Positions 9,736 to 35,169 of a DNA stretch of 64,000 bases are shown here, piece after piece. The notes under the pieces were generated by a model. That model was not told the DNA's origin and searched no databases. It saw nothing but the letters and a program-made list of their open reading frames with translations. Position numbers and translations under genes: made by a program. Each line of letters starts with the position of its first letter. The first letter of the stretch is position 1. The stretch is from Candidatus Shapirobacteria bacterium GW2011_GWF2_37_20 (GTDB lineage: Bacteria > Patescibacteriota > Microgenomatia > UBA12405): the NCBI GenBank assembly GCA_000989305.1, contig LBTB01000006.1:2448-66447 (forward strand), written 5' to 3'.

Positions 9736-10776
9736 TTAACAATTGAGGAGTCGCTCTTCAAGAGCATAAAGTTGGTCAATACTAGTCAACTTAACAATTT
9801 CCATCCTTAATTCCTTGGCGGCAGGGTGACCGGAAACATAAAGTAAAAAGTGGCGACGGAGAGGATCGAAACGGCGGGCAGGAAAAATATCAGTAAAGTT
9901 TTTGGCGTGTAAAAGCATGGCACTAAACTTTTCCCTAAGGTCCGGTTTTTTGTCATTAAAAGCCCAGGGATTACCCATAGCGGCCCGACCAATCAAAACC
10001 CCGTTAACTCCATATTTTTTACAATAATCTAAAGCCTGAGACCGGGATTCAACATCGCCGTTACCAAAAAAAATAGTACCGGCTTTTTTGGCTAATTTGG
10101 CGGCTTTAGCAATTGAATCCCAGTTGGCAGTGCCACTATAGCCTTGTTTAAGGGTGCGACCGTGAAGAGTCAGAAAATCTAAATGATGAGAAAGTAAAAA
10201 GGGAATCCAGGTATCGGTAGTATCGGCAGAAATTCCCAAACGGGTTTTGACAGAAATAGTAGGAATTATTTTACCGGAAAATTCGGAGTATTTTAGATTT
10301 CTCTCAATGACTTTAAAAACTTTTTCCTTAAGTTTTAAATCTTTTAAAGAAACCTTCTCTTTAGAAAAATCTGAAACCGCTTTTTGAACGCTTTTTATAA
10401 TTTGGCCAGCCAATTCCGGTTTATCAATTAAGGAGGCTCCGGAGCCATGTTGAGTTACAGTTTTGGCCGGACAGCCAAAATTAACGTCGATACCATCAAA
10501 GCCTAAATAACAAAGAATTACCGCAGCGGTATAAAAACTATCAGGATCCTTGCCAAATAATTGGCCTATAATTGGGCGTTCTTGGTTTGAATAAAGCAAA
10601 GTGTCAAAGAGTTTTACCGCAGAGTGAGCCAGACCTTCGGCGCTAACAAACTCAGTAAAGATTAAATCAGGCTTGGCAATTTGACATTGAGTAATTCGAA
10701 AGGCTTCGTCAGTAATGCCGTCCAGTGGAGACAAGGCCACAATTTTTTGAGATTTTAACAAATCACGTAAAGACAT
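9736..10776 (-). CDS. dus: tRNA-dihydrouridine synthase
   Basis: TIM-barrel Dus family with DVNFGCP and the FMN-binding region. The C-terminal helical tRNA-binding domain is present. Confidence 0.85.
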   Translation of the reverse strand: MSLRDLLKSQKIVALSPLDGITDEAFRITQCQIAKPDLIFTEFVSAEGLAHSAVKLFDTLLYSNQERPIIGQLFGKDPDSFYTAAVILCYLGFDGIDVNFGCPAKTVTQHGSGASLIDKPELAGQIIKSVQKAVSDFSKEKVSLKDLKLKEKVFKVIERNLKYSEFSGKIIPTISVKTRLGISADTTDTWIPFLLSHHLDFLTLHGRTLKQGYSGTANWDSIAKAAKLAKKAGTIFFGNGDVESRSQALDYCKKYGVNGVLIGRAAMGNPWAFNDKKPDLREKFSAMLLHAKNFTDIFPARRFDPLRRHFLLYVSGHPAAKELRMEIVKLTSIDQLYALEERLLNC

Positions 10777-26852: not shown

Positions 26853-27725
26853 TTAGAAAATGGTCCCCTGACGACCAAAAATTAACAACATTAGGATAAT
26901 TAATAAGAAGCCAATATGACTGGCTGAAGAACCGGTTAAGCGAGGGGTGTTATTTTTGAGGGTGATATAAGAATCAATAATCAAAACACCAAGAATTAGG
27001 GTAAAAATTATGGTACCAATAATTTTACTGATTAATAGCGGGCTGATCAGAGACGGGGTAACAGCACTGGTTCCGAGAGATTGAGTGGAAATAAGTGGCT
27101 CGGGAGCAGTTACGACGTCTGGGCTTGGGGCAGTAGTTTGTTTTTTGACGGCAACTTGGGTATTGAGGGGGGTAGCAAAATGTTGGACAACAAGGGTGGT
27201 CTTTACACCACTTAAAACTCCATTAATCACGGCAATACCAATTTCCTGGTATTTATCGTTAATAATATTATCCCGGTGAGTCGGAGAATTCATCCAGGCT
27301 TTTATAAGTCCATCGGTATCATAGAAATCTTTAGCCAAATTCTCTCCGGCAATGGAATACTTATAGCCAGCAGATTTGAAAAAATCCCAAGGGGTCTTAC
27401 CGGCAGGAGAATTGTGAGACCAATAGTTGTTGCTAAACATGTCGTTGGCTTTGGCGGCAGCAGACTGTGAAAGAGTGTCATTATATTCCAGGACAGGAAG
27501 GCCCAATTTTTGCCGTTCACTATTGGTTTGGTTGAGAACCTTTTGGGCAGTGATTTCTGAAGAATAACCCAAAATTCCAGGCTTTAAGACAGTCAGGGAT
27601 TGAATAATGGATTGATTGAGTAAGTAAAGAGCAATAAAGATGCCTAAAAATGAAGGTCGAAGTAGCAGAGCCCGGTGATTATTTTTTTCCTGAGGAATAA
27701 AGAGTAAAGATAAAAATCCGGCCAT
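26853..27725 (-). CDS. CAP/SCP/PR-1 superfamily (YkwD-like) domain protein with flanking TM segments
   Basis: ITAQKVLNQTNSERQKLGLPVLEYNDTLSQSAAAKANDM...HRDNIINDKYQEIGIAVING corresponds to the CAP domain core. Hydrophobic segments lie at both ends. Confidence 0.7.
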   Translation of the reverse strand: MAGFLSLLFIPQEKNNHRALLLRPSFLGIFIALYLLNQSIIQSLTVLKPGILGYSSEITAQKVLNQTNSERQKLGLPVLEYNDTLSQSAAAKANDMFSNNYWSHNSPAGKTPWDFFKSAGYKYSIAGENLAKDFYDTDGLIKAWMNSPTHRDNIINDKYQEIGIAVINGVLSGVKTTLVVQHFATPLNTQVAVKKQTTAPSPDVVTAPEPLISTQSLGTSAVTPSLISPLLISKIIGTIIFTLILGVLIIDSYITLKNNTPRLTGSSASHIGFLLIILMLLIFGRQGTIF

Positions 27726-27814: not shown

Positions 27815-29227
27815 ATGAAAAAATTAGTTTTAGTGCTAGTTGTTTTGTTTGGATTTTGGTTGTATGTTTCAAAAAATTCTCGGGCTCTGTCCTCAACCAA
27901 TGTTAAAGATGTTTTGTCAAACTCTCAGTTTTCATATTACGCAGAAGTCGGTGTGGGAAACTCGGTAAACTCAACAATAATTACCATAAATACTGGTTCT
28001 TTATTTCCATCAAAGACAACAAATAATCTGTTTGTCGGTGATACTGTTGCCATTGGAATCGGCGGAAGTCAAAGTATTTATTATGTCAGGGGAATAGGAA
28101 ATACGGCAAGTTTTGCCATAAATACCGGAATATCGGAAATATCAGCAGTGGCCGGAGGAAGTATTATTTCCACCCGCTCAGCAATACACACAGTTTCTTT
28201 TGAACCTCAAACAAATTCAACCGGTGGATATTGGCAATTTTTGATAAAGGCGGCATCGGGAGGCGGAGAAAAAAGCAGTGACAACATCCCTGACCAACAA
28301 GGTTTTGATTTGGGTAATTTGACAGTGGATGCAGTGACTTGTCCCTGGGGGGCAACGGCTTCCATAGGAACAACTACTGCTGTGGCTTTGGGTAGTCCCG
28401 CGGTGACTTCTTACTACCATGTAATTCAATGTGCATTGGGAGCTGGTGTGACAAATCCAGCCGGTACCGGTGAAACGGGAACCATAATTGTCGGAACAGG
28501 AAATACAATGATGATCAATCCCAGTCCTTCTAATACTGCATCTCAGGAAGGGACAGCAAATATTTTTAGTTATTTAGTACGACAATTGAATTCTTCAAGT
28601 CAAGTGTTAGATCAAACATACGGAAAAATTGCATTAGTGGAAGCAGTCAGGGTAACAGCCACAATTGATCCATCAATAACTTTTTATATAGACGGCATTG
28701 GGGCCACTGATGTTGGCTCAACAGCATGTGGCGTCGGGACAACTTTGAGCCCCGGAGCCGCTTATACTACCGGCAGTCAGGTTGTTTTTGGATCATTGGC
28801 TCTAAGCGCTTTTAACCAATTGTCTCAGCGATTATCTTGTGTGACCAATGCGCCTGGCGGTTATGTGGTAACGGTACATGAGGGAGGGTTGATGAGTAAT
28901 GTCAGCACGGGAACAACTATTCCGGACACTTTGTGTGACGGAGCAAATTGTACAACAACAAATGAAACTCCCTGGACAACGGTAAGTTCCAGCAGATCTG
29001 AGTTTGGATACTCAATGACTAATGTCGGAACAAGCTTACCACTAATTGAAGGTTACTTTAAACCATTTGGAATCGGAGCGGAAAATGCTCAAAAAATAAT
29101 GGAACGAATAACCTTGCCGGGAGGAATTGAATCAGCTTATGTTTGCTACCGTCTGACGGCAACAACTTCCCAAGAGGCAGGAGATTACGAGGGTAAAATT
29201 ATCTACACAGCCACCGCAACGTTTTAA
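27815..29227 (+). CDS. secreted Gly/Thr/Ser-rich hypothetical protein
   Basis: Signal peptide MKKLVLVLVVLFGFWLYVSKNSRA, then 470 aa rich in G/T/S/N. I recognise no sorting signal or domain. Confidence 0.5.
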   Translation: MKKLVLVLVVLFGFWLYVSKNSRALSSTNVKDVLSNSQFSYYAEVGVGNSVNSTIITINTGSLFPSKTTNNLFVGDTVAIGIGGSQSIYYVRGIGNTASFAINTGISEISAVAGGSIISTRSAIHTVSFEPQTNSTGGYWQFLIKAASGGGEKSSDNIPDQQGFDLGNLTVDAVTCPWGATASIGTTTAVALGSPAVTSYYHVIQCALGAGVTNPAGTGETGTIIVGTGNTMMINPSPSNTASQEGTANIFSYLVRQLNSSSQVLDQTYGKIALVEAVRVTATIDPSITFYIDGIGATDVGSTACGVGTTLSPGAAYTTGSQVVFGSLALSAFNQLSQRLSCVTNAPGGYVVTVHEGGLMSNVSTGTTIPDTLCDGANCTTTNETPWTTVSSSRSEFGYSMTNVGTSLPLIEGYFKPFGIGAENAQKIMERITLPGGIESAYVCYRLTATTSQEAGDYEGKIIYTATATF

Positions 29228-29231
29228 GTAA

Positions 29232-29846
29232 TTATCGGGCAGCAGTGACCACCAGACGATTTAAAGTCGTTCCCGGAGGCCAACAAGTCATTAAGGTAAG
29301 GGTTTGAATAGAAGTGAAACCAGTTAAATAACTAATGTCAGAACTTTTAACAATTTTTTTCTCGTTAACGGTATATAAATATTTACTACCCTCGTAATAG
29401 ACAGTTATTTCGTCACCAACAACAAGTTTGTCGGTTAGATAAAAAATAGCGTTGTATTGATTGGCCTGGTACCAAGAGTTGGCAGAGTGAGCAAAGATAA
29501 AGGTATTACCGGGAAAGCCAGGAAGGCCTGAACCCCTGGCATGAGCCACACCTTTGGTCAAAGCTTTTTGATACTCAGAAGAATTATTGGGGTCAACGTT
29601 TTTAATAACCCCGGAGTTGACATTAATTTTGGGAATAACAATAGAAAAGTCCGTATTAATCGGAACAACTTCTGGTTTTTTGGTAATTATTTTTGATGTT
29701 TGATAAGAAACTTCAGCCGAGAATACCGGGTAAAATGTTCTGACCAATATAAAAACTGCTGAAACTACCAGAAAATAACCGAGAAACCTGGACGCTTTAG
29801 TAACGAGCTCGTTTCTTTTTAAGGGCAACATAAATAATGCTAGCAA
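29232..29846 (-). CDS. sortase family transpeptidase
   Basis: N-terminal TM. Conserved His (IFAHSANS), catalytic-Cys motif TLMTCWP (TLxTC) and the downstream Arg (NRLVV). Its 5' end overlaps the 3' end of the LPXTG protein gene. Confidence 0.75.
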   Translation of the reverse strand: MLALFMLPLKRNELVTKASRFLGYFLVVSAVFILVRTFYPVFSAEVSYQTSKIITKKPEVVPINTDFSIVIPKINVNSGVIKNVDPNNSSEYQKALTKGVAHARGSGLPGFPGNTFIFAHSANSWYQANQYNAIFYLTDKLVVGDEITVYYEGSKYLYTVNEKKIVKSSDISYLTGFTSIQTLTLMTCWPPGTTLNRLVVTAAR

Positions 29847-32800
29847 TGATGATTAAAAATAGAAGTAGTAGCTTCCAGTATTTGGCAAAAAAAGTCGAAG
29901 TGAGGTTTTCGGTACCCAAGACTTGACCTTCTTCATTAGTGGCAGGAATATCTCCCTCCCCTACTATCTCTTCTTGGGGAAGATTTACTCCGGTAACGGG
30001 AATGGCAGCGGAAGTAGTGGTGGTAACAATCGTCGAATAAGAAGTGATGGTTACGCTGTCTCCAATGGTTCCTGAACCGTTTCCGGCGTCGTCAAATGCG
30101 CGGAGAACATAATAATATTCTTTATTACAATCAGGTACGGTATTGGTAACATCACGTTCTTGATTGGAACCAACAGGAATACTAGCAACCACAGAACCGG
30201 CGTCCAAGATAAAAGAAGTAACGTCGGCGCGATATATTTCAACCTTAACGGTCTTTCCCCCATCATCGGCAGTTTTAAAATGGATTTTATAATCACAAGT
30301 AGAGGGCCGATCTTTTCGGTAATCACTTGGGGTGCCGGGACCAGAGGTTTTGTAATCAACTGAAACAGTGTTACTGGATAATCCGTTGGCGGTGACATAA
30401 AATTGATAGGTACCTTCGGCATTCATAGTTGAAGAATCTGTGACACAGTCGTCGGTATTTCCGGGAGCTGACAGAGTAATATTGGATCCCATTTGACCAT
30501 ATCCGCTGTCTGAGGGACCTTTTTTGAAACATTTGACAGTAATTGGATTAACACCATCGATTTCTAAGGCAACGAAGGTGAGCTTAAGATTACTTATATT
30601 TGTTGGGGATATCGGTTGTTTGAGACGAACCGATAAGGGATTTACAACTGCCAGAGCATTGCTTGGGAATAAATAGAAAGCGGCAAAAAGGATAATAGCA
30701 ATCAGTTTTTTTGAAGATTTTTTGAGTAAAGTAAAACCTAAGAGGGCCATAAGAGTACTAATTATTAACCAGATATTGTTGGAACCGGTAGAAGGAAGTT
30801 CGGTGGAAGCACCGAGAACCTGACCTTCTTCATGTTTTTCAACACCGGCAGATATAGAATTTTGAGTACTGGCAACTATCGGAACTTCGGTGCCAACAAA
30901 ATTTTCATTAACATATTTAGAATCTTCACCTACAGCGTAAACAGGATCGTTAGTTCCGTAAGTAGTTTTACCCCGTGCGTAGGCTAAATCAGTATAAATA
31001 CCAGGTTGGTGATCGGAACTAATATCAGCAATATAGCTAAGCTCGACAGTGTCGCCAATACTAAGATTTCCCAAATTCCAAACACCGGGCGAATGATATT
31101 GAGGTTCAGTAATACCACCGGTAATATTGATACCATTTTTAAGAACATTATATGAACCAGATCGATATTTAAATCCGTTAGATAAAAGATCGGTTACTTT
31201 AAATTCATTAATATCGTTGCCAGAAATAATAACTTTGATTTTATAGCCAACTGAACCACCCGGAGGTATATTGCCTACGGCATCGTTTGATTTGGAAATG
31301 GTGGCAGAAGGAGGTGAAAGTTCTTCGATTTGACAAGTTGAAGAACATCCATCACCATTGACCGTATTGCCATCATCACAAGTTTCACCGGTTTCGACAG
31401 TTTCATTTCCACATACAGGAGCTGGAGTTTCACAACCATTTTCTAAGAAAGCGATATTGTCACCACTATAATTTTGTCCTGAATAAGAACAATCACCATT
31501 TATAAATGGAGGGATAATATCTAATGGTTCTAGTCCATGTCCTTTAGTTTCACATTCATCTTCACCCTCATTCCACTTATAAATACTGTTATATGAAACT
31601 TCTTGAGCTTTTTTATAAGCATTATTTCCTTCATCCCAGTGACAAATATCTACTTTTTTCTCTAATTTACAAGTTGAATCACATCCATCCTCATCGCTTG
31701 TATTTCCATCATCACATTGCTCACCTCGGTCAATATTTCCATCACCACAATAAGGTAGGTTTTCAAGCTTACATTGATTAGTACAAATTTGATGTGCCCC
31801 GACACCCAGAGTACCGTCGCATTCCTCAGTTGTTTCATCAAGGAAACCGTCACCACAGGGTGTAATGATTTTGGAATTATAGATATTACAAACGCCATCC
31901 CAGACAGTAATTTCATTGACAGCGACACCAACTGTGACACTAGCACACCCATTAATGTCTTGCTTCCAACCATCTGGAAGGGTTTCACTTACGGAATATG
32001 TTCCCGGTGTAACCTCAAAGGTTACTGAAACGGAAGATGAAATTGATCCGGTTGTACTTCCTGTTATTTGTCCGTTTCCACTAATACTTATTGGGAAGAC
32101 GGTTTGATCAGCATCACCAATGTTGGTAAATTGTTTTATAACTTTTATTGTTGCCTTTCTTTCGGGTATTTCACAATCATTGTTCCAAATCGCTTGTCCT
32201 TCAGTACTCCAATTTAAACCAGGATAATTTTTAACAACTCCACCATCTAAATAATTAAATGGAGGAATAATATCACCCCAGACCACTGTGATACCGGGAT
32301 ACCAAACAGGACCATTGTCACTAGCGTGGCCATTGAGATCTCCCGATTTGTTCGGAGTATTAATAACATAATAATTTGAAGAACTGGATGAGGAATGGCA
32401 AATAGTGACCTTGTCTTTTACTAACTCCAATTCGCATTTTTTACTACATTTGAAGTCAGACAATGAAGCATTCCCTAAATCGGTTCCATCACATTGTTCA
32501 CCATCTTCTTTTATGTCGTTTCCACATACCGAATCCGTAAACGTGGTGGTAGCCAGAACTAGACCAGCGAGACTGGTTAATTCAACCTTGTAGTCGGGAA
32601 TATAGGTGTCGAAAAGTTGGTAGCTATATGTAAAATTACCCGTAGAATCGGAAGTAATATTGTATGTTTGAGAGGGTTGTTTTTCTCCTGTTATTACTAA
32701 TAGATAGTCGGTGTTAACGGCAAAACCGCCGCCGGTGATGATGGCTATTTCAGCAGGAGCATAGTCGGCTTTGTCGGAAGAAATAATCGGATTAAGCAAA

Positions 32801-33357
32801 TCAGTGCGACAAGAAGTATTTTCAACAACCATTGTTTCGATTATTCCCCCATCAACGTTGGCACCCAGAACTAGGGGTAGAATTGTCGGAGTTGCCACCG
32901 GCGCTGTTGGTTCTGGTGAGCGGAGAGGAGTTGGAGAACTTGAAGAATTATTTCCAGAAGGCTGATTGTTATCTTCTGCGGGAGGAGTAGTTACTTCAGG
33001 GATAATGGTTGGAGTTATGGTTGGCTCAGGAGTTACAATGGGTTCTTCAGTAGGAGTAGCGGTTGGCTCTATGGTTGGCTCAGGAGTTACAATGGGTTCT
33101 TCAGTAGGAGTAGCGGTTGGCTCGGTTGGTGTTTCAGTAATAGTTGGCTCGAGGGTAGGAGTAGGTACTTCTTCAACAATCGGTGTAGGAGTTGGTTCCT
33201 CAGCATAGGCAGGAATGGCAACAAAATAGGGCAAAAATATATTTAGAAGAAGGGAAAAATTACACAAGACGGAACAAATGTTTTGAAAAAGTTTTCGACT
33301 ACGGAATAACTTGCTAACAGGGACAAATAGCGAAGACAAGGAATGTTTATTACTCAC
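29797..33357 (-). CDS. giant cell-surface protein: signal peptide, PT-rich repeats, 4 Myxococcus-type cysteine-rich repeats, DUF11-like region, LPSTG sorting signal; a second signal-peptide-like segment and membrane-anchored domain continue in frame
   Basis: 1186 aa. Signal ...IPAYA/EEP. EPTxTPTEEPIVTPEPTI repeats. CGDGxxDxGExCDDGNTxxxDGCxxxC repeated four times. HEEGQVLGASTELPSTG followed by a hydrophobic stretch and KKSSKK at residues ~854-886. Then LIAIILFAAFYLFPSNALA/VV, about 300 more residues, and ...EEGQVLGTENLTSTFF + TM + KKKRARY. Confidence 0.7.
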   Translation of the reverse strand: MSNKHSLSSLFVPVSKLFRSRKLFQNICSVLCNFSLLLNIFLPYFVAIPAYAEEPTPTPIVEEVPTPTLEPTITETPTEPTATPTEEPIVTPEPTIEPTATPTEEPIVTPEPTITPTIIPEVTTPPAEDNNQPSGNNSSSSPTPLRSPEPTAPVATPTILPLVLGANVDGGIIETMVVENTSCRTDLLNPIISSDKADYAPAEIAIITGGGFAVNTDYLLVITGEKQPSQTYNITSDSTGNFTYSYQLFDTYIPDYKVELTSLAGLVLATTTFTDSVCGNDIKEDGEQCDGTDLGNASLSDFKCSKKCELELVKDKVTICHSSSSSSNYYVINTPNKSGDLNGHASDNGPVWYPGITVVWGDIIPPFNYLDGGVVKNYPGLNWSTEGQAIWNNDCEIPERKATIKVIKQFTNIGDADQTVFPISISGNGQITGSTTGSISSSVSVTFEVTPGTYSVSETLPDGWKQDINGCASVTVGVAVNEITVWDGVCNIYNSKIITPCGDGFLDETTEECDGTLGVGAHQICTNQCKLENLPYCGDGNIDRGEQCDDGNTSDEDGCDSTCKLEKKVDICHWDEGNNAYKKAQEVSYNSIYKWNEGEDECETKGHGLEPLDIIPPFINGDCSYSGQNYSGDNIAFLENGCETPAPVCGNETVETGETCDDGNTVNGDGCSSTCQIEELSPPSATISKSNDAVGNIPPGGSVGYKIKVIISGNDINEFKVTDLLSNGFKYRSGSYNVLKNGINITGGITEPQYHSPGVWNLGNLSIGDTVELSYIADISSDHQPGIYTDLAYARGKTTYGTNDPVYAVGEDSKYVNENFVGTEVPIVASTQNSISAGVEKHEEGQVLGASTELPSTGSNNIWLIISTLMALLGFTLLKKSSKKLIAIILFAAFYLFPSNALAVVNPLSVRLKQPISPTNISNLKLTFVALEIDGVNPITVKCFKKGPSDSGYGQMGSNITLSAPGNTDDCVTDSSTMNAEGTYQFYVTANGLSSNTVSVDYKTSGPGTPSDYRKDRPSTCDYKIHFKTADDGGKTVKVEIYRADVTSFILDAGSVVASIPVGSNQERDVTNTVPDCNKEYYYVLRAFDDAGNGSGTIGDSVTITSYSTIVTTTTSAAIPVTGVNLPQEEIVGEGDIPATNEEGQVLGTENLTSTFFAKYWKLLLLFLIIIASIIYVALKKKRARY
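33010..33125. repeat. tandem direct repeat (~54-nt unit, 2 copies plus partials) encoding the PT-rich linker EPTATPTEEPIVTPEPTI
   Basis: atggttggctcaggagttacaatgggttcttcagtaggagtagcggttggctc occurs at 33017-33069 and again at 33071-33123. Confidence 0.8.
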
Positions 33358-33406: not shown

Positions 33407-33751
33407 TTACGTAAACAACCGATTGATTGACCTAATCTTTTTTAATTGTCTTAATATTAAAAGACCTATAAAAATTCCCAATAAATCAAAAAGTGTATCT
33501 TTGAGACGACCACTGCGGCCAAGAACAAAGGTTTGATGAATTTCATCACTTAATGCGTATAAATAGGCAATAATAATAGTTGATTTATTTTTTAATAAAG
33601 CATAAAAAATTAAGATAGCTAAAAGGGCAAATTCTAAAATATGAAGAGTTTTAAAAAATAGAAAACGGGGTAGCGGATCGGCAACAACGCTGTCGGTGGG
33701 ACCTGAAGAAAAATAAAAAATGACTCCCATCCAAAGAAGGGCGGGAATCAA
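33407..33751 (-). CDS. VanZ-like family membrane protein
   Basis: 114 aa, 3-4 TM helices. DEIHQTFVLGRSGRLKDTLFDLLG matches the VanZ-like conserved region. Confidence 0.6.
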   Translation of the reverse strand: MIPALLWMGVIFYFSSGPTDSVVADPLPRFLFFKTLHILEFALLAILIFYALLKNKSTIIIAYLYALSDEIHQTFVLGRSGRLKDTLFDLLGIFIGLLILRQLKKIRSINRLFT

Positions 33752-35169
33752 GCGGGGTAAAGTTTTGGAAATAAAATTGGTGATAAGAAAAGAATACTAC
33801 CCCCAAATAAGAATGGCCAGGAGAAAAAATTAGTGTCAGGACTAACACTGTTTAAAGTGGTGACTGAGGAACAGGAAGCAGGAGTGGATGAGAGGCTGGA
33901 GGAAAAGGTCGAAAGACCTAAAACCTGAGATTTTGGAATTGAAACTTTCTTGGGAACAGTAGTAACTTTTGCAGGAGCACTTTTAACAATTAAGTCACCC
34001 GGTTCAAAATCGATAAGTTTACTGCTGGTGTCCTTTTTTAAATGAAAATGAAGTAGATGGGTGCCTGTGGCTAAGGTTTTGGGGACCGTCAGTTCCATAT
34101 TTAAATAGGAGAAGCCGTCGTGGAAATCACCAAAAGCGGAATAGCGGTTACCGAAAGGAGAATTAAGCCGAAGTGAATAAGGTTCGGAAGAATTTAGTCT
34201 GAAAGTTAGGTTGAATTTTTGTCCAGGAAATACCGGAGACAAAGTTGACTGAAGATCTAAGACCGGCGAAGTATTGCTATTACTTGACGGGCTTGAAGTT
34301 GGGGTAGGAGTAGAAGACTGACAGTTATTATTAAATAAATTTTGACTGGGAGAAGTAAAACACCAGCTGTTATTTTCCTGAAGAGAGTATGATGAATTTT
34401 TGGGAGAAGAGGGATAAGTGACAATGGTGTCAAGAAAATGAACCGTATCACCACCATTATTTAGAAAGCCAGATGAAAAACTATGAGAATAGAAAGAAGT
34501 AGCACCGATATTCGTATTATCGTAAAAGCAAAGCTTATCTATTAAAATGGCCGAGGCACTAGAATTTTTGATTTCAATCCATTCATCCTGTCCACTTTCC
34601 GGATTGGCAAAGATTTCGTTGAGAATTAAATAATTTTTTAAGGTGGCTGAGGAAGAGGCTGTGGGAGTGGCGGTGGGAACAACCGTAGGAATGGTTGTGG
34701 GAATAATCGTAGGGACTGATGAGGGAGTAGCAGTGGGAGAAATAATAATAGTAGGTGTTAGGGTGGCACTTGGGGTGGCAATAATTGAAGCGATACTGAC
34801 ATATTGACTATCGTAGGTACTGGCGTGCTTATCACTTTGAGCCAAGCGGATTTTTATATTATTCAATGTCTGAGCTAAATTAATTTTTAAGGTAGCAGTG
34901 GCGGAATTAGTGGCAGGGTCAGAGATAATAAGATTAAGACAGTCGTCGTAGCGGCTGGCACAGGCGGGAAAAATAGAGATATCAGTATTGCTGTCGCCAA
35001 CCGCCTTAAAATGATAGGTCAGACCATTATCTAGAGAGGAAACGTTAAAGTCGAGAGAAAAAGTGTCTCCCACAATTACAGTTTGGGGAAAGTTAATTAT
35101 CGTAATCTCCGGGGCAGCAAAAGCTGTTTTTGGACAAAAGACAAAAAACAGCAATATTAGAAATATCAC
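33748..35169 (-). CDS. secreted protein with Pro/Thr-rich linker and lamin tail domain (LTD)
   Basis: Signal peptide MIFLILLFFVFCPKTAFA. PT linker (TPTIIISPTATPSSVPTIIPTTIPTVVPTATPT). LILNEIFANPESGQDEWIEIKNSSASAILIDKLCFYD fits the LTD consensus (NE..NP.G.DxEWIEL.N...). Confidence 0.6.
   Translation of the reverse strand: MIFLILLFFVFCPKTAFAAPEITIINFPQTVIVGDTFSLDFNVSSLDNGLTYHFKAVGDSNTDISIFPACASRYDDCLNLIISDPATNSATATLKINLAQTLNNIKIRLAQSDKHASTYDSQYVSIASIIATPSATLTPTIIISPTATPSSVPTIIPTTIPTVVPTATPTASSSATLKNYLILNEIFANPESGQDEWIEIKNSSASAILIDKLCFYDNTNIGATSFYSHSFSSGFLNNGGDTVHFLDTIVTYPSSPKNSSYSLQENNSWCFTSPSQNLFNNNCQSSTPTPTSSPSSNSNTSPVLDLQSTLSPVFPGQKFNLTFRLNSSEPYSLRLNSPFGNRYSAFGDFHDGFSYLNMELTVPKTLATGTHLLHFHLKKDTSSKLIDFEPGDLIVKSAPAKVTTVPKKVSIPKSQVLGLSTFSSSLSSTPASCSSVTTLNSVSPDTNFFSWPFLFGGSILFLSPILFPKLYPA

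Follow-up and report, generated by a model that had tools for sequence, protein, structure and literature searches.

Gene content and features of the locus

The window, by which we mean the whole 64,000-nucleotide stretch of DNA analyzed here, comes from an uncultured groundwater bacterium of the Candidatus Shapirobacteria. Its minus strand carries an uninterrupted open reading frame (ORF) at positions 29797-33357, which starts with GTG and has no stop codon after an internal LPSTG–TM–KKSSKK segment. The product is a 1186-amino-acid protein in which the frame of this tail carries 302 more residues past KKSSKK, 283 of them beyond LIAIILFAAFYLFPSNALA, up to the C-terminus ...NEEGQVLGTENLTSTFFAKYWKLLLLFLIIIASIIYVALKKKRARY*. 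A hydropathy scan gave four hydrophobic segments, namely, an N-terminal signal peptide and the segments TM1, TM2, and TM3. The features of the locus are as follows.

29797..33357, minus strand: complete fused ORF (adhesin, internal sorting signal, internal signal peptide, and FN3 partner); 1186 amino acids plus stop
33202..33357, minus strand: N-terminal signal peptide, residues 1-52, ending in ...NFSLLLNIFLPYFVAIPAYA before EE (hydropathy, family conservation)
30826..33201, minus strand: adhesin passenger, residues 53-844 (domain matches)
30811..30825, minus strand: G-Q-V-L-G motif, copy 1, residues 845-849; V, L, and G invariant in 142-143 of 143 homologues
30784..30798, minus strand: LPSTG sortase motif, residues 854-858, with predicted cleavage between T857 and G858 (PF00746, TIGR01167, conservation)
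30724..30774, minus strand: TM1, hydrophobic segment of the sorting signal, IWLIISTLMALLGFTLL, residues 862-878, predicted stop-transfer (structure model, hydropathy)
30706..30723, minus strand: KKSSKK, residues 879-884, predicted cytoplasmic loop (alignment)
30649..30705, minus strand: h- and c-regions of the internal signal peptide (TM2), LIAIILFAAFYLF-PSNALA, residues 885-903, with a predicted SPase I site between A903 and V904 (homology, conservation)
30352..30636, minus strand: FN3-like domain 1 of the partner, residues 908-1002 (AF2 model, Foldseek, alignment)
30061..30327, minus strand: FN3-like domain 2 of the partner, residues 1011-1099 (AF2 model, Foldseek, alignment)
29929..30060, minus strand: stalk, Thr-rich and then acidic, predicted disordered (AF2 model, alignment)
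29989-30009, minus strand: conserved AIPV motif in the stalk, AAIPVTG in the window (alignment)
29914..29928, minus strand: G-Q-V-L-G motif, copy 2, residues 1144-1148, before TM3 (alignment)
29800..29871, minus strand: TM3, LLLLFLIIIASIIYVAL, residues 1163-1179, plus the KKKRARY tail; C-terminal membrane anchor of the partner (model, hydropathy)
29232..29831, minus strand: sortase gene, 199 amino acids from ATG (PF04203 profile; His120, Cys188 in TLMTC, Arg197)

A preliminary description of this DNA had reported the in-frame continuation past an internal sorting signal, which our analysis bears out. It had also placed LPSTG (30784-30798) and Met870 (30748-30750) correctly, whereas its other residue numbers were off by about 4.

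Residues 1-52 are built like an N-terminal Sec signal peptide, in which a basic n-region precedes a hydrophobic core and AYA stands before EE, and they are conserved in the family; the real start of the protein may lie downstream of the annotated GTG. The adhesin passenger combines a Pro/Thr-rich N-terminal linker and an SpaA_2 prealbumin-like domain (residues 401-486) with Cys-rich DUF4215/myxo_disulf repeats. It also has a DUF11-like beta domain (about 684-827), whose conservation goes together with that of the junction module, and weak matches to RrgB and pilin-backbone models.

At the junction, residues 852-884 are recognized as an LPXTG anchor by both Pfam PF00746 (20.4 bits; cutoff, 20) and TIGR01167 (18.1 bits; cutoff, 15.9), and they show the pentapeptide, the hydrophobic segment, and the positively charged tail of a sorting signal. 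In the window, this signal lies inside the protein and runs on without a stop, whereas in split orthologues it occupies the extreme C-terminus with a stop after the basic tail. Residues 879-903, in turn, follow the Sec/SPase I pattern, with a basic n-region, an h-region within the usual 7-15 residues (13 here), and small residues at -3 and -1. This signal peptide is internal in the window protein, but the homologous segment is N-terminal in split and stand-alone orthologues. KKSSKK belongs to both signals, since the residues that form the basic tail of the first also make up the n-region of the second. TM1 is of moderate hydrophobicity (KD19 = 1.70), the TM1-TM2 loop has 6 residues, and copy 1 of G-Q-V-L-G falls within a segment of pLDDT <50.

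An AF2 model shows the TM1 and TM2 helices, two 7-stranded sandwiches (pLDDT >90), a disordered stalk, and TM3. A Foldseek search with the partner model matched tandem FN3 pairs (E=7e-8), with RbmA (4be6) at rank 47. Conserved cysteines occur in FN3-like domain 1 (C943 and C971, which presumably pair in a disulfide) and in domain 2 (C1021 and C1077), where the near-invariant K1015 also lies. The anchors of the partner and the adhesin share G-x-VLG, a TM segment, and a basic tail. The likeness is limited to these anchor regions; the two halves are not paralogous, and the proposal of fused tandem paralogues does not hold. The preliminary description had also taken NLTSTF, before the C-terminal anchor, for a decayed LPSTG, a view that finds no support in the family, in which 0 of the 157 members with complete C-termini have LPxTG there.

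The start of the downstream sortase gene overlaps the final 35 nucleotides of the fused ORF. The PF04203 profile scores 77.6 bits for 29232-29846 on the minus strand, and the catalytic H, C, and R are present. The protein falls far below every NCBIfam class cutoff, its best match being class C (NF033745; 57.3 bits versus 160). All 24 loci whose sequence extends far enough have a sortase homologue (46-71% identity) directly 3' of the module and in the same orientation. The neighboring gene at 27815-29227 has a sub-threshold match to CPR_Pam_pilin_C (21 bits; cutoff, 55) and is not conserved in related loci. The window also encodes a Peptidase_S11 (D-Ala-D-Ala carboxypeptidase family) protein; therefore, a wall acceptor is likely present.

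Conservation of the fused arrangement

The identical 1186-amino-acid protein is found on 8 contigs from separate Ca. Shapirobacteria assemblies, including GCA_000992605.1 and three ENA assemblies, and also under three NCBI MAG accessions of Ca. Shapirobacteria. Since independent assemblies contain the same protein, the fused ORF is not a sequencing error. Nor is the feature due to chance, given that the junction is conserved across about 130 homologous proteins of 700-3050 amino acids and 25-65% identity. Their C-terminal layout consists of G-x-VLGAST-x-LPxTG, TM1, a basic loop, and a signal-peptide-like segment with a conserved A/V-x-A site, followed by an ectodomain of two FN3 domains in tandem, a stalk, another G-x-VLG, TM3, and KKK. 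BLAST alignments over residues ~670-1186 extend to the C-termini of 24 giant proteins.

The VLG...TG segment was found in 143 proteins, about 130 of which run on into the partner in the same polypeptide; the other 13 are gapped past the sorting signal. Across these 143 sequences, V is kept in 143, L in 142, G in 142, P15 in 136, T17 in 138, and G18 in 143. The -1 position of the predicted SPase site is Ala in 117 of 128 fused forms, with V, A, T, I, or S at -3. Fused and stand-alone forms have the same median length, 18 residues, for the uncharged h+c run. One subfamily without LPxTG (VLGAATGSETYW) retains both the architecture and the sortase gene at the locus; thus, the motif recognized may not be LPXTG alone. 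Finally, in thirty-four stand-alone-like partners of about 306-344 amino acids, the N-terminal signal peptide aligns onto TM2. For one of these (L006), the upstream DNA was confirmed to contain a TAA in frame and an SD (AAGGAG).

Fused and split loci

At the DNA level, 19 of 23 species genomes (GTDB) have the fused form and 4 the split form; among 28 metagenome loci, these numbers are 21 and 7. Homologues, which the preliminary description had suggested looking for as one gene or two, are therefore mostly one gene, and two in the remainder. In the split loci, which occur in other Microgenomates (for example, Ca. Gottesmanbacteria UBA6580/UBA5942; L024, L025, L027, L029, L058, L060-61, and L065-67), the adhesin has a sorting signal of the canonical kind at its very end, ...LPxTG-TM-RRKYA*, and its gene shares 8 nucleotides (TATGCTTAA) with the partner gene. 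This second gene begins with M-L-K/N in the +1 frame, its SD (GGAGG or AAGGAG) lies inside the codons of the sorting-signal tail, and its product opens with a true signal peptide, which aligns with TM2. In fused loci, that of the window among them, the junction has neither an SD nor a Met; thus, the partner can be made only within the fusion. L028 keeps a possible GAGG upstream of an in-frame Met. As for Met870, its use as an internal start is implausible, as it has no SD and its position is not conserved.

Two origins had been envisaged for the fused ORF, namely, a joining of adjacent genes (by stop loss or sequencing error) and a bipartite protein. The split orthologues with their 8-nucleotide overlap uphold the fusion of adjacent genes, but a sequencing error is untenable, given the independent assemblies, and so is a one-off stop loss, given that the fused form is the majority state in Microgenomates and retains every topogenic signal. 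The bipartite protein is therefore the better functional reading.

A secretory polyprotein as the favored interpretation

We consider it fairly probable (roughly 0.7) that the fused ORF encodes a conserved natural secretory polyprotein, which arose by fusion of an LPXTG adhesin gene with the translationally coupled partner gene immediately downstream. With more than 100 related proteins of the same layout, the product seems to be a natural bacterial polyprotein and not an error. The N-terminal signal peptide would direct Sec export of the adhesin, and TM1 of the LPSTG sorting signal would halt transfer. KKSSKK would remain cytoplasmic and serve two signals at once, giving the sorting signal its positive tail and the next signal its n-region. 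LIAIILFAAFYLF-PSNALA would then reinitiate translocation, much as an ordinary signal peptide does, leading to export of the tandem FN3 partner, which TM3 and KKKRARY would finally anchor. The sortase encoded downstream would cleave between T857 and G858, within GQVLGASTELPSTGSNN, transferring the adhesin to an acceptor, presumably a cell-wall precursor, and signal peptidase I would cleave between A903 and V904. We infer this topology from hydropathy, the positive-inside rule, and homology, and we likewise infer both cleavages, the acceptor, and the role of the partner. TM1 is only moderately hydrophobic and the loop is short, so that insertion of TM1-TM2 as a hairpin is an assumption of the model. 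The invariant VLG motif and its copy before TM3 have no role in the model.

According to the preliminary description, cleavage at T857 would leave a 2-TM fragment in the membrane, but three hydrophobic segments would remain. Use of the conserved A-x-A site would divide this remainder into a 46-residue TM hairpin (G858-A903) and a single-pass partner with two FN3 domains on a Thr-rich/acidic stalk, while the adhesin would be linked to the wall.

Alternatively, the protein may persist as an intact three-pass molecule in which LPXTG and A-x-A are relics and the adhesin and the FN3 pair stand on the same side of the membrane. Its predicted topology would be identical to that of the polyprotein, the cleavages are predictions, and a subfamily does without canonical LPxTG. 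Yet we regard this scenario as unlikely: relics should decay, whereas LPxTG is kept in 136 of 143 sequences, T-G in 138-143 of 143, and the -1 Ala in 117 of 128; the h-region is still as short as that of a signal peptide, with the same h+c median as stand-alone forms; and a sortase gene adjoins the module in every one of the 24 loci.

It is similarly unlikely that the sortase, after cleavage at T857, takes the partner as its nucleophile, whether through the amine newly exposed at V904 or, for example, through the near-invariant K1015. Such a reaction would excise the TM hairpin, leaving the adhesin covalently on a membrane-anchored FN3 stalk and not on peptidoglycan. This proposal draws on the obligate trio of adhesin, partner, and sortase, on the conservation of K1015 (155 of 156), on the resemblance of the partner's long Thr-rich/acidic stalk to a wall-spanning region, and on the 1:1 proximity of donor and acceptor that a fusion ensures. 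However, it is purely inferential; a pilin motif and an E-box were not identified, the window protein has Ile in place of the EQPK lysine close to the mature N-terminus, the sortase is below all class cutoffs, and the Peptidase_S11 protein makes a wall acceptor likely.

We deem it very unlikely that ribosomal or transcriptional slippage on an A-run, or an internal start, yields separate adhesin and partner, with the full fusion rarely translated. The window junction does hold A6 and A7 runs, removal of one A from the A7 run gives a frame with an immediate TGA, and L028 retains its possible GAGG and in-frame Met. Nonetheless, these A-runs are Lys codons in DNA of 38% GC and are not conserved as runs in homologues, and slippage would still leave the partner startless at a junction that has neither an SD nor a start codon.

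That two ordinary genes were joined meaninglessly, whether by a sequencing or assembly error where the junction is rich in A or by a chance stop loss not long ago, is effectively refuted: although one A fewer would give ...KKSSKN-TGA, a canonical terminal sorting signal, and split orthologues exist, the ORF is identical on the 8 contigs, the roughly 130 fused homologues have differing junction sequences, and a fresh accident would leave the opposite of what we see, namely, all signals conserved and the internal SD and start lost.

Comparison with known systems

The split operon of other Microgenomates has the components of the polyprotein proposed here, with homologous sequences in the same order (adhesin-LPxTG, SP-FN3-FN3-TM partner, and sortase). 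It consists of two overlapping genes with an SD, whereas the window has a single frame in which the SD and start codon have been lost.

Internal signal peptides occur in Bradyrhizobium FbcH, the cytochrome b-c1 precursor, and in the envelope polyproteins of flaviviruses and alphaviruses. In these, a stop-transfer TM precedes a signal-like TM, and a signal peptidase cut on the outer face yields two mature proteins. They share no homology with the window protein, whose components are those of surface adhesins and whose upstream cut is predicted to be made by a sortase, that is, by transpeptidation and not hydrolysis.

Sortase-assembled Gram-positive pili resemble the locus in that class C is the best match of its sortase and the adhesin has SpaA/CnaB-like domains. 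In contrast, the class C score is under the cutoff, neither a pilin motif nor an E-box was identified, and, although each subunit of such pili has an LPXTG of its own and the major pilin a pilin-motif Lys, LPxTG is found in 0 of 157 partners and the window protein has not kept the EQPK lysine.

In the CPR Pam pilus, PamR is described as a tandem FnIII protein of the RbmA type that begins with a signal peptide and ends with a TM helix; it is the proposed tether of a surface filament to the membrane, in a system described as involving no sortase (bioRxiv 10.64898/2026.03.03.709456). The window partner has the same gross architecture of tandem FnIII and a C-terminal TM helix. No link was found at the sequence level, where the NCBIfam scan of the module gave the LPXTG model only, without Pam matches. 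PamR belongs to a pam operon with PamA/B pilins and PapD-like PamC/D chaperones; at the window locus, the sub-threshold CPR_Pam_pilin_C match of the neighboring gene was the only one to a Pam model, and no chaperone-like fold was found for the module. Donor-strand insertion into a pilin would call for an extra N-terminal strand; the partner AF2 model shows 7+7 strands and none beyond them.

Canonical Gram-positive LPXTG substrates (PF00746/TIGR01167) share with the window protein a signal peptide, LPSTG, a hydrophobic stretch, a Lys-rich tail, an adjacent sortase gene, and a passenger of SpaA, DUF11, and Cys-rich adhesin domains. The window family differs in its invariant G-x-VLGAST upstream of LPxTG and in an internal sorting signal that continues directly as a signal peptide and then a folded membrane protein of 283 residues. 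If the polyprotein reading is true, the leaving group of the sortase would be the whole precursor of the FN3 membrane partner, instead of the short, ~30-residue peptide released from canonical substrates.

The fused reading frame

In the preliminary description of this locus, a long surface-protein gene was read as carrying its sortase sorting signal inside the frame, followed without a stop by a second signal peptide and a second anchored domain; this layout was accurately seen. The fused open reading frame (ORF) joins an LPXTG adhesin, through an internal signal peptide, to a C-terminal membrane part with tandem FN3 domains, here called the partner. The sorting signal, the hydrophobic segments TM1 and TM2, and the partner make up the module; TM3 is the C-terminal anchor.

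Features of the fused ORF and its sortase gene
29797-33357, minus strand: fused ORF, a single uninterrupted frame with a GTG start, 1186 aa
30784-30798, minus strand: LPSTG, residues 854-858; peptide at the sortase-site junction GQVLGASTELPSTGSNN
Residues 862-878: TM1, IWLIISTLMALLGFTLL
Residues 879-884: KKSSKK basic stretch
Residues 885-903: TM2, the second hydrophobic segment, LIAIILFAAFYLFPSNALA
C-terminal end: ...EEGQVLGTENLTSTFFAKYWKLLLLFLIIIASIIYVALKKKRARY
29232-29831, minus strand: sortase (PF04203, 77.6 bits), directly downstream of the fused ORF

No in-frame stop codon occurs across the junction (...ctt cct tct acc ggt tcc aac aat atc tgg ... tta ctc aaa aaa tct tca aaa aaa ctg att gct...), and residues 852-884 are matched as an LPXTG anchor, slightly over cutoff, in Pfam and NCBIfam. 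The identical 1186-aa product is called on 8 contigs, including GCA_000992605.1 (LBUO01000009) and three separately assembled ENA metagenomes, and its neighbors are alike on all of them. The protein cluster has three NCBI MAG accessions (Ca. Shapirobacteria) and is named in UniRef only as "LPxTG domain-containing protein."

Fused and split forms of the locus

Whether homologs exist as one gene or two, a question raised at the first reading of the sequence, has both answers. When the DNA was checked in species-representative genomes of Shapiro-, Woese-, Roizman- and Gottesmanbacteria, 19 loci were fused through the junction and 4 were split, the complete fused ORFs spanning 1706-2771 aa. The same check of metagenome contigs, some of which duplicate species-genome loci, gave 21 fused, 7 split and 13 undecidable loci.

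In split loci, the adhesin terminates in a textbook sorting signal (...LPxTG-TM-RRKYA, then the stop), and the partner gene begins with M-L-K/N in the +1 frame. The stop and start overlap (TATGCTTAA), and a strong Shine-Dalgarno (SD) sequence, GGAGG or AAGGAG, lies within the basic-tail codons. Such an overlap has the sequence form of tight translational coupling; the insertion or deletion of one base would suffice to fuse the two frames. At L025, L027 and L029 (junctions near 10100-10150) and at L006:1-21, the Arg/Lys codons of the tail (cgg agg aaa or agg aga aaa) double as the SD of the partner gene.

Among database proteins, 34 of 306-344 aa resemble stand-alone partners, and their N termini (M-K/R-K...h-region...A-x-A) align onto TM2. 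This count is an upper bound, because one apparent stand-alone partner (L005) turned out to be a fused gene cut off at the edge of its contig; P0146 was rejected as a stand-alone partner, since the frame upstream of it is still open at the contig edge. The separate partner gene of L006 is a true one, verified by an in-frame TAA and an AAGGAG.

In a rough neighbor-joining tree built on the FN3 region, the split forms fall on one side with two fused ones, opposite a large clade that is entirely fused; this tree suggests at least one major fusion and two minor ones. Junction sequences vary by group: KKSSKK-LIAII in the window, KHDKITKS-MAKK-IFSIF, which keeps a vestigial Met-Ala-Lys-Lys, and MRR-VLLFALL. 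From the tree and these sequences together, we tentatively propose one major fusion event and probably two or three in all. The closest true relatives of the fused protein are split operons in sister lineages. Contigs L010-L012, L014, L017-L021, L023-L024 and L029-L031 carry a Microgenomates-type adhesin-partner-sortase cassette, yet the titles of their GTDB records, "uncultured Gammaproteobacteria" and "uncultured Pseudomonadales," point elsewhere and are probably mistaken for these MAGs.

Conservation across the family

Many Microgenomates proteins of 1300-2050 aa were found when the whole protein was used as a database query, and 24 of them align by BLAST from query residue ~670 across the junction to their own last residues. 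With residues 840-1186 as the query, an exhaustive HMMER search gave 616 cluster representatives at E≤1e-3, including 327 at E≤1e-30. The C-terminal ~350 residues of the family align end to end (alignment A1). Their order is G-x-VLGAST-x-LPxTG, TM1, a Lys/Arg loop, a short hydrophobic segment ending in small-x-Ala, ~190 well-conserved residues, a Thr-rich and then acidic linker with GAIPV, a second G-x-VLG, TM3 and a basic tail. All retrieved related proteins were scored with an HMM built from A1: the VLG...TG part was present in 143, with more than 100 residues upstream of it in 140 and same-chain continuation into the partner in about 130.

Within these 143 proteins, the V of the sorting motif and G18 are invariant (143/143 each), followed by L and G (142 each), T17 (138), P15 (136) and L14 (128); TM1 also conserves a Gly (137) and a Trp (126). 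The T-G dipeptide is thus universal but L-P is not, because a distant subfamily has VLGAATG-SETYW in place of ...ASTELPxTG. Judging from these sequences, the real sortase recognition motif may be broader than LPXTG. The subfamily without LPxTG (L032 and L033-L035; proteins P0076, P0030 and P0042) reads VLGAATGSETYW and keeps the fused architecture. Its sortase gene lies upstream instead of downstream, and the P0030 locus also has M10, S8 and M73 (camelysin-like) peptidase genes.

G-x-VLG is invariant ahead of the T-G site and recurs ahead of TM3 (window 30811-30825 and 29914-29928), and some homologs have third or tandem copies, e.g., SVLGAATSAVLGAATGSETYW. The upstream neighbor (33748-35169, minus strand) has SQVLG before a C-terminal hydrophobic stretch, 59 aa from its C terminus. 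Stand-alone partners end in V[LEQ]GA[SA]T..WW-TM-basic, the same anchor form without T-G. No known sorting-signal model matches G-x-V-L-G. A recent internal duplication of the EEGQVLG anchor was rejected on three synonymous differences between the two DNA copies. The proposed reading of NLTSTF near the C terminus as a decayed LPSTG was rejected as well, since LPxTG occurs at that position in 0/157 proteins. The partner stalk conserves G-A-I-P-V (window 29989-30009, minus strand), where the window protein reads AAIPVTG and so mimics a sortase motif; IPVTG (1119-1123) was dismissed as a second canonical sortase site because AIPV is conserved and Thr is not, with no TM directly after. An EQPK lysine was considered as a pilin-motif nucleophile and discarded, the position being Ile in the window protein.

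The N-terminal signal peptide of the adhesin family is unusually conserved (..CN[IF]SLLLNSFLPYFAA[IV]PAYA/EEP; window 33202-33357, minus strand; homologs P0002-P0008 and P0126) and is reminiscent of specialized types such as YSIRK. The adhesin part had zero matches among PDB sequences.

Predicted structure of the partner

AlphaFold2 with the family alignment (mean pLDDT, 77) predicted TM1 and TM2 helices, two seven-stranded sandwiches with pLDDT >90 (residues 908-1002 and 1011-1099), a disordered stalk and a long C-terminal helix (TM3). In a Foldseek search of PDB structures, the partner matched tandem FN3 pairs (integrin β4 1qg3, E=7e-8; neogenin; contactins), with RbmA (4be6) at rank 47; a Pfam sequence scan of the partner gave no match. 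No PapD-like chaperone appeared in that fold search, and a role as a PapD-like Pam chaperone was rejected. Two cysteines are conserved in each FN3 domain; K1015 (155/156) and S1095 (156/156) are also notable. A second model (residues 665-1186) contains a well-folded DUF11-like domain at ~684-827. There the G-x-VLG-LPSTG stretch has pLDDT <50, which makes it a linear motif within flexible linker sequence and not a domain strand; G-x-VLG as the final DUF11-domain strand fails on pLDDT <50 in both models.

The sortase and the flanking genes

The catalytic residues of the window's sortase are all in place (His, Arg and the Cys of TLMTC), and its gene, from the ATG on, overlaps the fused ORF by 35 nt. 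A homolog with 46-71% identity to it directly follows the module on the same strand in 24/24 related loci with enough sequence. The window's enzyme fits no defined class: its best NCBIfam match, to class C, scores 57 bits where the cutoff is 160. According to Méheust et al. 2019, nearly all Microgenomates have a sortase.

Adjoining the sortase on the opposite strand is a gene for a secreted 470-aa protein (27815-29227, plus strand). This protein has a full-length match to NCBIfam NF058581, "CPR_Pam_pilin_C," which at 21 bits stays under the cutoff of 55; by this likeness it may be a distant Pam-type donor-strand-exchange pilin. Related loci do not share this gene next to the cassette. The cassette is flanked by a CAP/PR-1 domain gene (26853-27725, minus strand), which recurs in L006, L009, L032 and L035, and a VanZ-like gene (33407-33751, minus strand), which recurs in L009 and L032.

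Export, processing and alternatives

Of 128 fused proteins, 117 have Ala at position -1 relative to the mature partner, and -3 is V/A/T/I/S, a pattern that reads as the signal peptidase I (SPase I) rule. Fused and stand-alone forms share a median length of 18 residues for the uncharged h+c run. From their sequence, the internal signals of fused forms still look functional. In fused loci, the window included, the junction has lost its SD and usually its Met; the partner can therefore be made only within the long chain and must depend on the internal segment for its export. KKSSKK appears to play two roles, as the positive tail of the sorting signal and as the n-region of the signal peptide; both need a cytoplasmic location, and the topology is therefore self-consistent.

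We favor a secretory polyprotein processed by sortase and SPase I, with a probability of roughly 70%. Sec would export the adhesin until TM1 stops transfer, leaving the loop inside; the internal signal peptide would restart export, and TM3 would anchor the chain. Sortase would then cut between T857 and G858, passing the adhesin to an acceptor, and SPase I between A903 and V904, yielding the adhesin, a 46-residue hairpin and the mature partner. The hairpin length has a median of 52 residues across the family (range, 45-67). Sequence and comparative evidence supports the steps up to the topology; we infer both cleavages, the acceptor and what the partner does.

An unprocessed three-pass protein, keeping TM1, TM2 and TM3 in the membrane, is unlikely: the window's h-region, only 13 residues, has the length of a signal peptide and not that of a stable TM. 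It is also improbable that sortase and signal peptidase excise the TM1-loop-TM2 hairpin and that sortase ligates Thr857 onto the partner, at what could be Lys1015 or the new partner N terminus. The G-x-VLG motifs flanking both anchors would then be enzyme docking sites, and the adhesin would be covalently rebuilt and membrane anchored, giving the leaving group of a sortase a function not described before.

Recoding or an internal start is very unlikely. A6 and A7 runs occur at the junction (window 30703-30725, minus strand), and removing one A from A7 recreates a canonical terminal sorting signal (...KKSSKN-TGA). In DNA of 38% GC such runs are simply Lys codons, and homologs do not conserve them as runs, on which ground slippage was rejected. 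Neither M870, which the preliminary description had offered as a start, nor another internal start has an SD or a conserved position. An artefact is barely credible, as the suggested sequencing error is ruled out by the same fused product in independent assemblies.

Relation to known systems

Annotation pipelines name the window protein only hypothetical or "LPxTG domain-containing" and, depending on the lineage, will either overlook the partner or annotate two genes at the locus. The comparison brings out a conserved adhesin-partner-sortase cassette in bacteria that are ultrasmall and probably host-dependent, and about whose surface biology little is known; the coexistence of fused and split forms of this three-gene cassette provides a natural control. 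It also exposes G-x-VLG as an invariant linear motif for which no current model accounts.

The Pam pilus of CPR bacteria includes PamR, an RbmA-like tandem FnIII protein with a C-terminal TM, proposed to tether a filament (bioRxiv 10.64898/2026.03.03.709456). The partner shares this gross architecture. We found no sequence link between the partner and the Pam system and no pam operon; the partner was thus rejected as PamR, and we keep the architectural analogy as a lead, not as a claim of membership. In the predicted structure, no extra donor strand was seen.

Literature searches on sortases, LPXTG, internal signal peptides, polyproteins and Microgenomates turned up no account of an internal sorting signal or of an adhesin-partner fusion. 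The fused protein is a real, conserved and apparently undescribed sortase-substrate variant, a bacterial surface polyprotein whose processing we infer. In the accepted picture, the sorting signal of a sortase substrate lies at the extreme C terminus, and the piece cleaved off is a disposable peptide. The window protein works like the classical LPXTG substrates, but its sorting signal is not terminal; in this family, which is widespread in Microgenomates (CPR), sortase would release an entire conserved membrane protein that has a signal peptide of its own. The window protein is predicted to be a rare bacterial secretory polyprotein organized by a stop-transfer/start-transfer hairpin, a design whose other known examples, to our knowledge, are mainly viral envelope polyproteins. 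Internal signal peptides occur in polyproteins such as Bradyrhizobium FbcH and the envelope precursors of flaviviruses and alphaviruses; the window protein is similar to these in logic.
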